This document shows, piece after piece, positions 3-62,439 of a DNA stretch of 64,000 nucleotides. The notes under the pieces are model-generated. The model did not search any database, was not told the origin of the DNA, and was given only the letters and a program-made list of their open reading frames with translations. Where the stretch lies: IMG/VR virus record IMGVR_UViG_3300045988_144476; one strand, given 5' to 3'. The position numbers and the translations under genes were made by a program. Numbering within the stretch: the stretch's first letter is position 1; each line of letters begins with the position of its first letter. This DNA is from a virus.

Positions 3-17
3 TAATGTTTTAATCAA
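3..17 (+). repeat. 15-nt intergenic motif copy
   Basis: TAATGTTTTAATCAA, 7 nt before the SD of gene 34. Confidence 0.7.
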
Positions 18-33
18 TGAAAGGAGATAAAAT

Positions 34-264
34 ATGAAAGGCAAAATCATTCTTGGACTCACAGCATTCACATTACTTGCCGGAATCATCGGCACGATTG
101 ACATTAACACTTACAACGGAATTCATTCCGTTACCGGTTATGCAGCGAACAATAAAATCATTGCTGACAATGGAAATACTTACTCTGCTTCGAATCTCGA
201 AGGTAAAGTAAAAGTAACTTTAGATAATAACGGAAGCGTTATTGAAATCACATCACAGAATTAG
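34..264 (+). CDS. small secreted/membrane protein (hypothetical)
   Basis: 76-aa ORF; AGGAG upstream; hydrophobic N-terminus KIILGLTAFTLLAGIIG. Confidence 0.7.
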   Translation: MKGKIILGLTAFTLLAGIIGTIDINTYNGIHSVTGYAANNKIIADNGNTYSASNLEGKVKVTLDNNGSVIEITSQN

Positions 265-278
265 AGAGGGAAATAACT

Positions 279-575
279 ATGACAATCGATCCAAAAGAAA
301 TCAAAGAAAGAAAAGCAATTGATAAAAAGGTTGCAGAAGTTGAACCATTTTTTCCACTTGTTGAAAAGGAAGATGATGTAGCAGTTATTCATATGAAACA
401 TGCAATTGCAAACCTGTACTATAATTTGTTAAAAGAAATCTTTCCTCATACAGTAGCAATGTATGAAGATGAAATCATTACCACAGTAGGTCACAATGGA
501 ATGCATTATCTATATCTCACAGGCAAAATTGATTACTGTGGTTGTCCAAATGGTCACAGATTATTCATTATCTAA
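279..575 (+). CDS. hypothetical protein
   Basis: 98-aa ORF, GAGGG SD upstream, tiles after previous gene. Confidence 0.65.
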   Translation: MTIDPKEIKERKAIDKKVAEVEPFFPLVEKEDDVAVIHMKHAIANLYYNLLKEIFPHTVAMYEDEIITTVGHNGMHYLYLTGKIDYCGCPNGHRLFII

Positions 576-591
576 GGAAGGAGCAAAGCAA

Positions 592-59364: not shown

Positions 59365-61631
59365 AAGAAACTAAAAATACCGTTGAATTTGAAGGAAGAG
59401 TAGAAAAGTGCATATATAATAAATCTGATTCTGATTGGGCTATTTATGCTATGAATGTTGATCCTGAGAAGTATCCAAATATTAAACAAAATAAATATGA
59501 AAATGTTTCTATTTGTGGAGAAATCGCTGATCTTAGCTTATCACGGCCGTATGTAATTACGGCTGTGGAGCAGGATAGTAAATATGGACCAACTTATAAA
59601 GTTCAAAAAATGCATATCATTAAGCCTAAAACAGGAGAAGAAGTGTATACCTTTTTACGAGAAGTGTTAACTGAGAATCAGGCAGCAGAATTATATAGAG
59701 AATATCCTAATATTATTGAACTTGTTGAACAAGAAAGAGATAATGAGGTCGACACATCAAGATTAAAGGGCATTGGTGAAAAAACACTTTGGAAGATTAT
59801 TGATAAAATCAATACTAATATAATATTGTTTGATTTGGTTACTGAATTTGGTGGTATTTTATCATTAAAAATATTGAAAAAACTTTATGATGAATATTGT
59901 TCTGTAGAAGCAATTAGAAGAAATCTTCGTAAAGAACCATATAAATGTCTTACTAGGATTTCTGGTATTGGTTTTATTAAAGCTGATGCTATGTTGTTAC
60001 AACTTGAAAAAGAGAAACGTATTGATTTTGGATATGATCTTAGAACAAGTCCTCAAAGATGTAGTGCTTGCATGGAATATTATCTTCTGGAGAATCAGAA
60101 CGAAGGTAATACTAAGATGGATTTAAGAGATTTACGGAAGATGGTTATGCAATATGTTCCTGCTTGTGCTCATCATTATGTAGATTGCCTTAAGAAATGT
60201 GACTTCTATTATGATAAAGAGACTTTTGATGTTGCATTAAGAGAAACATATAATACTGAAAAGTATATTGCTGAAAAAATTGCTAATGCTAATAATAATC
60301 CTCGTATTTGGAATATTAATTGGAAATCATATCAGAGTAAAGGTGAATATCCTTTAACGGATGAACAGCTTAGTGCCCTTAGATGTATTTGCAATAATAA
60401 TATTATGATTCTTAATGGTTTTGGTGGATCTGGTAAATCTGCTACATCCGGTATGATTATTAAAATGCTTGAAGATAACAATATTCAGTATAAATTATTT
60501 GCTCCCACAGGAAGAGCTGCAAAGGTATTATCTGATTATACCGAACGTCCTGCAGCTACTATTCACAGAGGACTTGGTTATATGCCACCAAACTGGTGTT
60601 ATAACGAAGATGCTAAATTAATAACAGATGTAGTTTTGGTTGATGAATTTTCAATGACAGATATCTTTTTATTCAAACATTTAGTAGAAGCTATTGATTT
60701 TGAACGTACAAAATTGATTTTAGTAGGTGATTCAGCACAGTTACCAAGTGTTGGCCCCGGAAATTTATTACATGATTTTATCCGATCAAAAAAGATTCCG
60801 ACAGTAACATTGAATAAAATCTTTCGATATGGTGAAGGTGGTTTAATGGCAGTAGCTACCGATATCAGAAATATGGAAGAATACCTATCTAAAGAAGCAT
60901 TCCAGGTGTTTGGAAACAATCAAGATTATACTTTCGTCAACGTTGCAAGTGATAAAATGATACTTAATGTAGTAAGTTTATATGCAAAACTATTAAAAGT
61001 CTATAAACCAGAAGATATTCTTGTTTTATCAGCTTATAATAAAGGCGATTATGGTACGGTAGCTATAAATAATCATCTTCAAAAACTTGCGAATAAAGAA
61101 AATTATGGATCAGAAAATTGTATCGAAATAAAAGATGTAAAATATTATGTAAATGATATTATAATTCAAACCACAAATAATTATCATGCAGCGATTTATT
61201 TTGAAGGAATGGATTTAGGTGAACTCGAAAACGGTAAGGATATATTTAATTATAAAGAAGATGGATTTGAAGAAACTTTTATACCGAATGGTATGATTGG
61301 GAAAATCACATCCATAATTGATAAAAAATATGTCATTATTAATTTTGATGGAATAGAAGTGGTTTATATGAAAGATAATATGAGAGATGTATCTTTAGGA
61401 TATTGTATTTCGATTCATAAATCACAGGGTGGATCAGCCAAAATTGTAATGCTTATATCACCTTCTGCACATACATTTATGATGAATTCTAATCTTTTAT
61501 ATGTTGGTATTACAAGAACAAAAGAAAAATGTTATCATCTTGGAAATATTGAAACAGTTAACAGAGCAGTAAAGCAGAAAGAAAACTTTAATAGGAAAAC
61601 TTTCATGCTTGGAATGCTCTTAAATAAATAA
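59361..61631 (+). CDS. RecD-like SF1 DNA helicase
   Basis: GFGGSGKS, LVDEFSMTD, VGDSAQLPSVGPG, IHKSQGGSA, YVGITRTKEK. Confidence 0.88.
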   Translation: MKETKNTVEFEGRVEKCIYNKSDSDWAIYAMNVDPEKYPNIKQNKYENVSICGEIADLSLSRPYVITAVEQDSKYGPTYKVQKMHIIKPKTGEEVYTFLREVLTENQAAELYREYPNIIELVEQERDNEVDTSRLKGIGEKTLWKIIDKINTNIILFDLVTEFGGILSLKILKKLYDEYCSVEAIRRNLRKEPYKCLTRISGIGFIKADAMLLQLEKEKRIDFGYDLRTSPQRCSACMEYYLLENQNEGNTKMDLRDLRKMVMQYVPACAHHYVDCLKKCDFYYDKETFDVALRETYNTEKYIAEKIANANNNPRIWNINWKSYQSKGEYPLTDEQLSALRCICNNNIMILNGFGGSGKSATSGMIIKMLEDNNIQYKLFAPTGRAAKVLSDYTERPAATIHRGLGYMPPNWCYNEDAKLITDVVLVDEFSMTDIFLFKHLVEAIDFERTKLILVGDSAQLPSVGPGNLLHDFIRSKKIPTVTLNKIFRYGEGGLMAVATDIRNMEEYLSKEAFQVFGNNQDYTFVNVASDKMILNVVSLYAKLLKVYKPEDILVLSAYNKGDYGTVAINNHLQKLANKENYGSENCIEIKDVKYYVNDIIIQTTNNYHAAIYFEGMDLGELENGKDIFNYKEDGFEETFIPNGMIGKITSIIDKKYVIINFDGIEVVYMKDNMRDVSLGYCISIHKSQGGSAKIVMLISPSAHTFMMNSNLLYVGITRTKEKCYHLGNIETVNRAVKQKENFNRKTFMLGMLLNK

Positions 61632-61643
61632 TGATTTAATCAA
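61629..61643 (+). repeat. 15-nt intergenic motif copy
   Basis: TAATGATTTAATCAA followed by AGGAGG. Confidence 0.7.
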
Positions 61644-61653
61644 AGGAGGAAAA

Positions 61654-62427
61654 ATGAATAGAATTGATTTGCTTCAAAATGAATTGAATATGATTAAATC
61701 TGATGATATTCGAGAGTTTGCAAAGATTCTTATTAATGATGCTCCGGAATATTTCTTTCATGTTCCTGCATCATCTACAGGAAAATATCATCCGTCTTAT
61801 GCTCTTGGTGAAGGTGGTCTTGCTAGACACACAAAAGCTGTAATGAGATTCTTTAATCATATAATTAGACTTGAACAGTATTCACGAGTACTTGACGAAC
61901 GTCAAATAGACTTAGGTTTAGTAGCTTGTCTTGCTCATGATATGCAGAAATCTGGAACTGAGTCATATTATTTAACTAAGATAGAAGAGGGTAAGAAGGT
62001 ATTCACAGTATTTGATCATCCTATTTTAGCGGCTAATTTTATCTCTGCACACCAGGATTGCGGTTTAAACGAAGATGAGATAACTTATATAGCTGATGCT
62101 GTAAAGTCGCATATGGGTCAGTGGAATACGGATAAACGTAGTGATATTGTACTTCCGAAACCAAAGAGTTTTATTGAAACGATGGTGCATCTGGCTGATT
62201 ATCTTGCTTCTAGAAAAGATATCGAAGTACAATTTTCCGATGAAGAAAAAATGATTGATTTACCAGACATCAATACATACGAATGTCCTTTTAAGAAGCA
62301 TAAAGGAGAATTGTTAGTTGATGTTGCTCGAAATGATCCAGAATATCTTGAATGGTTAAATGATAATGTTACATTAAAAGAACCTATGAAGACTTTTATA
62401 AAAAAACTTCTTCAAAAAGATACTTAA
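61654..62427 (+). CDS. HD-domain phosphohydrolase
   Basis: KYHP...LARHT...CLAHDMQK...HLADY. Confidence 0.8.
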   Translation: MNRIDLLQNELNMIKSDDIREFAKILINDAPEYFFHVPASSTGKYHPSYALGEGGLARHTKAVMRFFNHIIRLEQYSRVLDERQIDLGLVACLAHDMQKSGTESYYLTKIEEGKKVFTVFDHPILAANFISAHQDCGLNEDEITYIADAVKSHMGQWNTDKRSDIVLPKPKSFIETMVHLADYLASRKDIEVQFSDEEKMIDLPDINTYECPFKKHKGELLVDVARNDPEYLEWLNDNVTLKEPMKTFIKKLLQKDT

Positions 62428-62439
62428 TGTTTTAATCAA
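62425..62439 (+). repeat. 15-nt intergenic motif copy
   Basis: TAATGTTTTAATCAA. Confidence 0.7.

Follow-up and report, generated by a model that had tools for sequence, protein, structure and literature searches.

The closest described system is that of phage SPbeta, in which MrpR, a monomer, binds a 15-bp element (SPBRE) as double-stranded DNA at 10 intergenic or promoter sites, as determined by ChAP-seq and EMSA; PaimR and PyosX reporters are ~5-fold lower when MrpR is present, and the protein shows no recombinase activity in vitro (PMC10516654). SroF of phage phi3T is likewise a monomer, acting on an asymmetric AT-rich 26-bp box with sites throughout the genome (bioRxiv 10.1101/2025.11.27.690993). 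Our own derivation of these sites in the SPbeta sequence NC_001884 shows all 10 to be co-oriented with the downstream gene, including that of yonP, a gene of the opposite strand. At aimR the copy ends 6 nt before a -35, and the yopV, yonX and yopM copies lie past a promoter and adjoin an SD. Clostridium phage c-st carries AAATTAAATTA 21 times in 50 kb, always on the gene strand, and combines promoter bracketing with SD-adjoining copies, the same layout as in the DNA described here.

The 64,000-nt stretch of viral DNA that we analysed (the window) represents the arm of an SPbeta/c-st-like temperate phage that carries the early and replication genes, and contains a repeated 15-base motif, TAATGWTTTAATCAA, that is real, strand-specific and intergenic. 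There are 14 exact copies, all non-coding and on the + strand; allowing up to 1 mismatch gives 20 on + and 0 on - (17 non-coding), and up to 2 mismatches gives 28, with 27 on + and 1 on - (21 non-coding). Shuffled sequences contained 3.75 ± 1.74 matches at the last threshold, with 0 of 100 shuffles reaching 28, and the 21 intergenic copies compare with ~2 expected per strand; TTAATCAA by itself was matched 27 times against 13.2 expected. Non-coding DNA makes up 9.5% of the window, and binomial probabilities are ~1e-15 to 1e-17 for the non-coding location and ~1e-7 for the strand bias. Since all long ORFs of the window are on the + strand, the motif is co-oriented with transcription. A preliminary description of this DNA had proposed to compare the frequency, intergenic location and strand bias of the motif with background, and the counts exceed expectation on each point; its tally of at least 22 intergenic and 3 intragenic copies is revised to 21 intergenic copies, plus intragenic look-alikes numbering 6 on + (11397, 17122, 31458, 42696, 45481 and 51329) and 1 on - (59800), the seven together being near chance expectation.

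According to the information profile the element is compact (15-19 nt) and asymmetric, AAaTAATGWTTTAATCAAa, carrying ~22 bits, with nothing conserved in its flanks. The motif copies, the promoters found with them and three genes of special interest are as follows, in order of position.

3-17, + strand: motif copy TAATGTTTTAATCAA; the SD of gene 34-264 begins 4 nt downstream
2215-2229, + strand: motif copy, 2 nt past the stop of 1154-2212; the -35 of promoter 2247-2275 is 17 nt downstream
2247-2275, + strand: sigma-A-type promoter, TTGATT-17-TATATT with TG, between copies 2215 and 2288
2288-2302, + strand: motif copy, 12 nt past the -10, at ~+6 of the predicted transcript
2650-2664, + strand: motif copy TAATGTTTTAATGAA, 1 mismatch, adjoining the SD of a small ORF starting at 2678
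6042-6056, + strand: degenerate motif copy TAGTGAATTAATCAA, 1 nt past the stop of 5723-6040
8961-8975, + strand: motif copy, immediately past the upstream gene's stop; ATG 8993 is 17 nt on
20581-20595, + strand: motif copy, 7 nt past the stop of 20289-20573, opening a long non-coding gap
24549-24563, + strand: motif copy; its TAA serves as stop for 23883-24551
27556-28536, + strand: tyrosine recombinase (Pfam Phage_integrase) in the SPbeta yopP/sroD position; weak match to YopP itself
28550-28564, + strand: motif copy TGATGAATTAATCAA, 13 nt before the -35 of the promoter preceding the yopQ-yopR-like genes
28578-28606, + strand: sigma-A-type promoter, TTGACT-17-TATAAT, downstream of copy 28550
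28639-29895, + strand: YopQ/SroE-like protein; 26% identity to SPbeta YopQ, E 2e-14
29899-30837, + strand: MrpR/YopR/SroF-family integrase-fold repressor (Pfam, PDB and BLASTP matches), the proposed motif binder
30862-30876, + strand: motif copy, past the repressor gene and its 3' hairpin, adjoining the SD of 30891-31172
31173-31187, + strand: motif copy TGATGAATTAATCAA, immediately past a stop, adjoining the SD of the NAD-ligase gene
34366-34380, + strand: motif copy; its TAA serves as stop for the ligase gene; -35 7 nt downstream
34388-34416, + strand: sigma-A-type promoter, TTGACA-17-TGaTATAGT, between copies 34366 and 34435
34435-34449, + strand: motif copy TAAAGTTTTAATCAA, 18 nt past the -10, adjoining the SD of 34463-35182
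35180-35194, + strand: motif copy giving the stop of 34463-35182 and adjoining the SD of 35209-37281
37296-37310, + strand: motif copy adjoining the SD of 37324-37701
43886-43900, + strand: motif copy, 1 nt past a stop; -35 15 nt downstream
43916-43944, + strand: consensus sigma-A promoter, TTGACA-17-TGgTATAAT, 12/12 matches, between copies 43886 and 44008
44008-44022, + strand: motif copy, 63 nt past the -10 and 13 nt before tRNA-Gln (44036-44110)
47952-47966, + strand: motif copy TAATGAATTAATCAA, 3 nt past the stop of 47574-47948
50460-50474, + strand: degenerate motif copy TAATTCTTTAATCAA, 4 nt past a stop; ATG 50505 is 30 nt on
61629-61643, + strand: motif copy giving the stop of 59361-61631 and adjoining the SD of 61654-62427
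62425-62439, + strand: motif copy giving the stop of 61654-62427; -35 5 nt downstream
62445-62473, + strand: sigma-A-type promoter, TTGACA-17-TGaTATAGT, downstream of copy 62425

The contexts named in the preliminary description were recovered. Sigma-A-type promoters were found at 2247-2275, 34388-34416 and 43916-43944, where bracketing by 2215/2288, 34366/34435 and 43886/44008 had been described, and at 28578-28606 and 62445-62473, downstream of copies 28550 and 62425; each of the copies said to lie just before an SD (30862, 31173, 35180, 37296 and 61629) adjoins one. Copies were also said to stand at gene ends and often to give the stop, and in five of them (24549, 34366, 35180, 61629 and 62425) the stop codon of the preceding gene is indeed part of the motif. 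In all, five strong sigma-A promoters are accompanied by copies, and ~13 copies (~2/3) have no recognisable promoter nearby.

The product of 29899-30837, the first of two regulators suggested in the preliminary description, proved to be a homologue of MrpR, YopR and SroF. It matches Pfam PF22822 (MrpR_N_CB) with E 2.4e-15 and 57.4 bits against a cut-off of 27, PDB 9RD5 (1.8e-10, residues 3-258) and the YopR/MrpR entries 8BJ6, 8BJV and 8A0A; BLASTP gave 25% identity to SPbeta YopR (E 3e-11), and identity to the c-st yopR homologue CST030 is 23% (E 3e-10). MAFFT places K and I/E where the active-site His and second Arg would stand and, in the window protein, C where the Tyr would stand, a reading that is uncertain because alignment to MrpR is poor in the C-terminal half. 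The genes run integrase, YopQ-like, YopR-like, with the repressor gene last, as in SPbeta yopP-yopQ-yopR (sroD-E-F), and a yorF-yorL-type replication module follows downstream. The second suggested regulator, 6301-7146, looks instead like a DnaD/HTH_36 replication initiator, and nothing ties this protein to the motif. Scanning ~45 window proteins against Pfam and PHROGs revealed no gp71-type repressor (N-terminal HTH plus stoperator domain).

We propose that the motif is a functional counterpart of SPBRE, namely the operator box of the SroF/MrpR/YopR-type master repressor that the phage itself encodes (29899-30837), a reading to which we assign a probability of roughly 0.78. Homology, synteny, layout and co-variation together suggest the link between protein and motif, and both binding of the motif by this protein and repression are what we infer. 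The motif system thus most likely represents another instance of a recently described system and not an element of a new kind. The repressor, as a monomer with an integrase fold, would occupy every asymmetric AT-rich box of the prophage in a single orientation and keep the phage silent. Copies 5-17 nt before a -35, and those ~+6 to +60 past strong sigma-A promoters, would silence the early lytic promoters, among them that of the repressor's own operon; copy 28550, upstream of the promoter of the yopQ-yopR-like operon, makes autoregulation possible. The gene-junction copies within operons, which overlap stops and adjoin SDs, would add occupancy and probably block read-through, as stoperators do in mycobacteriophages, although this roadblock role is the most conjectural part of the scheme.

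Several features unite the window with the SPBRE system. The homologous repressor gene stands in the same yopP-yopQ-yopR order, and the box is in both cases 15 bp long, AT-rich and asymmetric, with many intergenic sites that are all co-oriented with genes. Copies lie a few nt before a -35 (7 and 5 nt for 34366 and 62425, near the spacing at aimR) or past a promoter and adjoining an SD, where copy 34435 resembles those of yopV, yonX and yopM; in both systems repressor and box specificity vary by lineage. The box sequences, however, are unrelated, and the window sites are ~4x denser (21 in 64 kb versus 10 in 134 kb in SPbeta). The window also differs in having three promoters bracketed by two copies, several copies that supply a stop codon, and a host that is presumably a gut Firmicute rather than Bacillus. 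Among the genes identified in the window, none belongs to the arbitrium system. The ~2/3 of window copies that are operon-internal and have no recognisable promoter are not covered by the SPbeta precedent.

Comparison with related gut phages bears on the link between protein and motif. A phage 94-97% identical, with a 96% identical SroF, keeps the window motif at the same sites, whereas other relatives are without it and carry a motif of their own at the same positions, promoter bracketing included. Each of four SroF classes (33-37% identity to the protein of the window) pairs with one of four motif classes and with no other, in a sample of four lineages only. No protein of the region diverges more than SroF (33-37% identity); its two operon neighbours are 43-53% identical in the same comparison, and the ligase and a 690-aa protein 69-87%. 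Because the whole sro module is divergent, the co-variation points to this module and not uniquely to SroF. Gene order is conserved across the lineages with differing motifs. A repressor and box pair particular to each lineage would set immunity specificity.

Alternative explanations were weighed against this operator reading. The suggestion in the preliminary description that the sites form an operator network rather than terminators is supported. We rejected the motif as an intrinsic terminator: it has a 1-nt loop and an AT-only stem in place of a GC-rich stem-loop with a U tract, and none of the terminator-like hits around the copies examined coincides with one. The same description had read the motif as a perfect palindrome and hence as the site of a dimeric protein. 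The motif could indeed be the operator of a different regulator, such as a conventional dimeric HTH repressor on the 5+1+5 inverted repeat TGATTTAATCA (TGATT-T-AATCA), which 8 of the 21 intergenic copies contain in perfect form, and another regulator could sit outside the window, because the genome may measure 170-180 kb, of which 64 kb are visible. But the repeat is broken in the other 13 copies, and a single site can have A at position 6 in one phage and T in another, the two phages being 94-97% identical; the idea of a dimeric binder fails because the palindrome is not conserved. The relatives' motifs AATAATGTAAAATTTGAAA and AATAAATTTGAT are not palindromes, a palindromic dimer site would not give a 27:1 strand bias, and the window encodes a member of a repressor family known as monomeric binders of asymmetric boxes. 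We accordingly discarded the palindromic operator of a dimeric repressor, and consider a different regulator improbable. A signal acting in RNA, as a processing or translational-regulator site that lies before SDs or tRNAs and separates the cistrons of long transcripts, would suit the strict placement of the motif on the transcribed strand, in the gap that separates a stop codon from the following SD or tRNA, the frequent spacing of 13-14 nt between motif and start codon, and the position of copy 30862 after a 3' hairpin. Against this, the homologous SPbeta element is bound by MrpR as double-stranded DNA, and the promoter-upstream copies have no SD behind them. No nuclease or RNA-binding candidate was found, nor any complementary RNA in the window, where there is one weak minus-strand match and no relevant Rfam match. 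The lineage-specific 15-mers would moreover need a co-evolving, highly sequence-specific RNA-binding factor, and we know of none in such phages. An RNA-level signal before SDs is no longer needed and seems unlikely.

We regard as very improbable the idea that the motif is a promoter for phage-specific machinery (a phage sigma factor, or a YonO-like or single-subunit RNA polymerase) driving middle or late expression. A single compact ~22-bit element directly before genes, lineage-specific in the manner of T7-type promoters, would be compatible with it; TGWTTTAAT looks like an extended -10, and copy 30862 follows a terminator-like hairpin. However, copies on both flanks of a strong sigma-A promoter would then make little sense, the L121-lineage motif has no -10-like shape, and the corresponding SPbeta element is a repressor site. 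Because the gap between motif and SD is only 0-3 nt, a sigma-type RNA would also start inside or past the SD. Equally slight is the chance that the copies are recombination joints, whether as targets of the YopP-like integrase or as short homologies by which gene cassettes are shuffled, along the lines suggested for promoter-stem-loop cassettes of T4-type phages; the preliminary description had raised such cassette shuffling. Two tyrosine-recombinase-fold genes do lie side by side, copies stand exactly at gene boundaries, and the genome is mosaic, with a 92% identical block in a ~73% background. Yet lineages with different motifs share one gene order, the sole mosaic boundary examined (near 35180) is off the motif, MrpR is without recombinase activity in vitro (PMC10516654), and the motif has neither a stem-loop nor 11-13 bp inverted arms with a 6-8 bp spacer.

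Other phage systems resemble the proposed operator network in part. As with the palindromic, dimer-bound operators of lambda type, repressor sites adjoin early promoters, but the window sites are asymmetric, strand-biased and spread over tens of kilobases rather than clustered at two operator regions. The promoter-early-stem-loop (PeSL) cassettes of T4-type phages are repeated elements with early promoters at gene boundaries; the window differs in lacking a stem-loop, in its conserved gene order and in having promoter-free copies of its motif. Start-associated sequences of Cluster K mycobacteriophages are conserved short one-strand motifs immediately before many start codons, with the ribosome-binding site forming part of the motif, and to our knowledge they have no assigned binder or function; the window motif stands apart from the SD and has a candidate binder. 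The stoperators of Cluster A mycobacteriophages (L5 gp71, TipsytheTRex repressor) are alike in being asymmetric 13-15 bp sites for a monomeric repressor, in numbering >20 and lying at promoters and in short intergenic gaps, and in having an orientation that tracks the direction of transcription. Their boxes are nevertheless GC-rich, their repressor combines an HTH with a stoperator domain and is unrelated to the integrase fold of the window protein. With the orientation-dependent block of elongation demonstrated there, the window motif shares its site distribution, and the block itself is a conjectured parallel.

Copy 37296 is identical in relative L143, where it lies inside a ~98-100% identical block among L143's own motifs. 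That L143 tolerates one window-type copy implies either that single sites are dispensable or that the block arrived very recently.

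The reading best supported by our analysis is that the window motif, the 15-nt element repeated between genes, is the box to which the homologue of the phage repressor SroF/MrpR encoded in the window binds. With up to two mismatches allowed, TAATGWTTTAATCAA matches 28 times in the window, compared with 3.75 ± 1.74 times (maximum 8) in dinucleotide-preserving shuffles, and 27 of the 28 matches lie on the + strand, which also carries every long ORF; the half-site TTAATCAA by itself is enriched about twofold. By a simple gene map, 9.5% of the window is non-coding, and this fraction holds 14/14 exact copies, 17/20 copies with at most one mismatch and 21/27 + strand copies with at most two (binomial P ~1e-15 to 1e-17 for location, ~1e-7 for strand). 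Chance alone would give roughly as many copies as occur within genes (six) and on the minus strand (one). The excess over shuffled sequence and the intergenic placement agree with the preliminary description, whose account of how copies are arranged at promoters, Shine-Dalgarno sequences (SDs) and gene ends was also correct on re-examination. Most copies start 0–14 nt past the stop codon of the upstream gene, in five cases supplying that stop codon themselves. Nine lie within 0–4 nt of an SD, frequently 13–14 nt from the start codon, and tRNA-Gln has a copy 13 nt upstream; about half of the intergenic gaps of at least 20 nt are without a copy. At five of the strongest + strand sigma-A-type promoters, a copy ends 5–17 nt upstream of the -35 element:

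Sigma-A-type promoters with an upstream copy
2247, + strand
28578, + strand
34388, + strand
43916, + strand
62445, + strand

Four of these promoters match the consensus at 11–12 of 12 positions, four have the extended -10 TG, and three have a second, downstream copy between about +6 and +60.

The shape of the element was initially taken to be a palindrome bound by a dimeric protein, but a perfect inverted repeat, TGATTTAATCA, is present in only 8 of 21 intergenic copies; the remainder read TGTTTTAATCA or TGAATTAATCA. The information profile of 20 intergenic copies instead describes a compact, asymmetric element, AAaTAATGWTTTAATCAAa, beyond which the sole conserved feature is a frequently following SD. 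A metagenomic contig 94–97% identical to the window (SroF 96%) retains the motif at the same sites, with position 6 changed from A to T at the equivalent of copy 30862 and position 4 changed at the equivalent of copy 34435; the palindrome is therefore not under selection. With the palindrome broken and the copies strand-biased, a dimeric repressor bound to it does not fit.

No close DNA match to the window was found among deposited phages (megablast against INPHARED), and its predicted proteins identify a large phage replication arm:

Replication-arm proteins encoded in the window
NAD-dependent ligase with LAGLIDADG intein
DnaB-type helicase
DNA polymerase III alpha-type polymerase
RecD-like helicase
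Sak4-like ATPase
two tyrosine-recombinase-fold proteins

The LAGLIDADG match falls in a ~390-aa insert of the ligase (31201-34368) that looks like an intein; exactly 31518-32701 is absent from the 94–97% identical contig, and relatives cover about half the protein. Of the annotated relatives of the ligase, the best is that of Clostridium phage c-st, in which the corresponding genes are labelled homologues of SPbeta yopQ, yopR, yorF, yorI, yorJ and yorL. Gene order at the candidate repressor locus is the same in the window as in c-st and SPbeta:

Genes of the candidate repressor locus
27556-28536, integrase
28639-29895, YopQ-like (26% identity, E 2e-14)
29899-30837, YopR-like (Pfam MrpR_N_CB match above threshold)

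The 29899-30837 protein matches the solved structures of YopR/MrpR and 9RD5, a related "core-binding domain" protein, and is 25% identical to SPbeta YopR and 23% to the c-st homologue. The suggestion that it is a regulator is thereby strengthened, as Pfam, structure matches and sequence identity all point to a homologue of MrpR/YopR.

Lysogeny of SPbeta is controlled by the master repressor MrpR (= YopR = SroF), a monomer in solution that adopts a tyrosine-recombinase fold yet showed no recombinase activity in vitro (PMC10516654). ChAP-seq of MrpR gave 10 peaks, all within the prophage, with a common 15-bp motif identical to the SPbeta repeated element (SPBRE) already predicted in 1999; binding was confirmed by EMSA and reporter fusions, PaimR and PyosX being about five-fold lower with MrpR (PMC10516654). 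In the reported phi3T SroF-DNA structure, a single monomer wraps around an asymmetric, AT-rich 26-bp box, reading 24 of its 26 base pairs; the sites are scattered over distant parts of the genome, and SPbeta-like phages encode multiple specific repressor-antirepressor pairs (bioRxiv 10.1101/2025.11.27.690993). We recovered the SPBRE, roughly ACAAAWAATATGTATA, from the SPbeta sequence at the 10 ChAP-seq targets, and in 10/10 it is oriented like the gene that follows, even at yonP, which lies on the opposite strand. Between the end of the aimR copy and a downstream TTGACT -35 there are 6 nt; for window copies 34366 and 62425 the corresponding distances are 7 and 5 nt. The yopV, yonX and yopM copies each follow a sigma-A promoter and adjoin the SD, an arrangement also seen at window copy 34435; the remaining five sit inside TAGACA...TAATAT promoters. 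Because these sites share its arrangement, the layout in the window is that of experimentally validated MrpR sites. The window differs from the SPbeta system in its much higher site density and in the pairing of copies around promoters.

The 690-aa protein encoded at 35209-37281 has relatives at 58 IMG/VR loci, on contigs that reach ~180 kb; where a source is stated, it is mostly human-gut samples. With at most one mismatch, the window motif is absent from these loci, except for one copy in L143. Exact-motif scans of the IMG/VR collection, which does not include the window's own genome, gave scattered single matches only, a motif scan of genome contigs gave no match, and neither did the repressor protein as an IMG/VR query; in metagenomes, its matches were confined to two near-identical contigs, too similar to the window for testing co-variation. 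In place of the window motif, every relative lineage carries a strand-specific intergenic motif of its own at the corresponding positions:

Lineage-specific intergenic motifs in relative loci
L143: AATAATGTAAAATTTGAAA
L121 group: TTAATTAWACA plus AAATTAACTTT
L139 and L140: AATAAATTTGAT or AATAAATTTTAT
L150: AAATAAATTA

Bracketing of promoters also recurs (L143 9241/9309 and 17974/18072; L140 19036/19130). Of the expectation that motif positions would be conserved, the sites and layout, including bracketing, stood, while the sequence is replaced by a lineage-specific motif. Among loci whose retrieved flank includes the sro genes, SroF falls into four classes, each paired with a different one of four motif classes. 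Each class is 33–37% identical to the window protein, which makes SroF the most divergent protein of the region: two operon neighbours are 43–53% identical, the ligase 69–81% and the 690-aa protein 73–87%. The single window-type copy in L143 stands amid that locus's own motifs, within a ~98–100% identical stretch, in a block 92% identical to the window against a background of ~73%; it is best read as a recent import. The 50 kb of c-st (NC_007581, 10000-59999) show the same pattern with AAATTAAATTA: the gene strand carries all 21 copies, which lie upstream of TTGACA promoters, downstream of them beside an SD, or at gene junctions. This repeat is probably the operator of the YopR homologue CST030; a literature search found no relevant earlier description of it.

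Other explanations account less well for these observations. Copies that abut an SD or stand on both sides of a promoter are at odds with a phage-specific promoter, and the conserved gene order is at odds with recombination joints that shuffle cassettes. A signal acting at the RNA level is compatible with the sequence and has some residual likelihood; no candidate for the factor involved was identified, and the homologous element of SPbeta is bound in the form of DNA.

Several narrower interpretations were tried and set aside. A division into promoter-upstream (W=T) and SD-proximal (W=A) types showed an unconvincing trend (3/5 vs 3/9), undercut further by the flip of position 6 at one site in the close relative. 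Neither a mini-ORF (ATG-WTT-TAA) nor TAATG coupling is kept in the relatives' motifs, and as a set of stop codons in all three frames the motif covers only two. Likenesses to boxA/nut (TTTAACAA) and the Fur box (TGATAATnATTATCA) are weak and inconsistent across lineages. As an extended -10 (TGWTTTAAT), the element lacks the A at -11, and the RNA start would fall inside the SD. The 874-aa protein, considered as a YonO-like RNA polymerase, is a P-type ATPase. For a complementary guide RNA, the window offers no antisense copy beyond one weak minus-strand match, and its only Rfam hits are tRNAs and RAGATH-27.

If the window motif is the SroF box, early lytic transcription in the prophage would be repressed through the copies beside and just downstream of strong sigma-A promoters, and the repressor operon would be autoregulated through copy 28550. 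The numerous copies inside operons, which go beyond the SPbeta precedent, would add occupancy and, by analogy, may act as roadblocks to read-through in the manner of Cluster A mycobacteriophage stoperators, the asymmetric sites of a monomeric repressor whose orientation follows that of transcription (PMC9283540). In the gut-phage and c-st branch, oriented boxes number in the dozens and mark almost all larger gene junctions, where they overlap stop codons, abut SDs and lie on either side of promoters. It is conceivable, though we think it rather unlikely, that an integrase-fold SroF-type repressor of this branch evolved a stoperator-like mode, silencing a ~175-kb prophage by stopping elongation or read-through in addition to initiation; if true, this would be convergence with Cluster A mycobacteriophages via an unrelated protein fold.

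The SPBRE (predicted in 1999), its binder (identified in 2023) and the DNA complex (reported in 2025) are already known. What is new is the instance in uncultured gut phages and c-st, the higher site density, the paired copies at promoters and the co-varying repressor/box pairs. The SPbeta-type system, an integrase-fold monomer with many asymmetric boxes, would thus extend beyond Bacillus phages to large uncultured human-gut phages and the botulinum-toxin phage c-st. At least five new lineage-specific candidate repressor/box pairs (four from gut phages, one from c-st) could be tested for immunity specificity or used as orthogonal regulators, and in annotation the motif flags gene boundaries and early promoters in these phages.

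Other features of the window and its relatives deserve mention. A stress or ion module at 37719-42582 encodes a P-type cation ATPase together with TerD, a TerF-like vWA protein and a PspA/IM30-like protein; its ATPase shares 99% identity with that of L143 within the 92% identical block 34873-42668 (background ~73%), a similarity that points to recent exchange between phages. The 1.6-kb non-coding stretch 45941-47573 holds a RAGATH-27 RNA (45970-46055; 89.6 bits, gathering score 76.1) along with three tRNAs and an unusual tRNA-like gene (47088-47165; Rfam tRNA 45.6 bits), which has a four-base anticodon (agcg) by ARAGORN and could be a frameshift-suppressor-type tRNA or a miscall. The 363-nt non-coding gap 23182-23544 contains a long inverted repeat of the type TTAATCAGGCTATGTATGATGACATCT...AGATGACATATGG...AGCCTGATTAA and several promoter-like sequences, and could be a structured RNA or origin-like region. 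In the more distant relative L163, TTATCAAAAAAGATAA forms 5–6 iteron-like tandem copies at 18–23 nt spacing (13351-13500), and in the distant relative L161 (44% GC), GCAAAGGCA occurs 12 times on one strand (12423-13160), 10 of them within a ~750-nt non-coding stretch, and could be a repeat array or structured RNA. A reverse transcriptase gene (17375-18655; Pfam RVT_1, E 1.8e-23) lies amid small early genes. The protein at 3878-4789 has a DUF7666 domain followed by pentapeptide repeats; as proteins with such repeats can act as DNA mimics, it might serve in anti-defence or gyrase protection.
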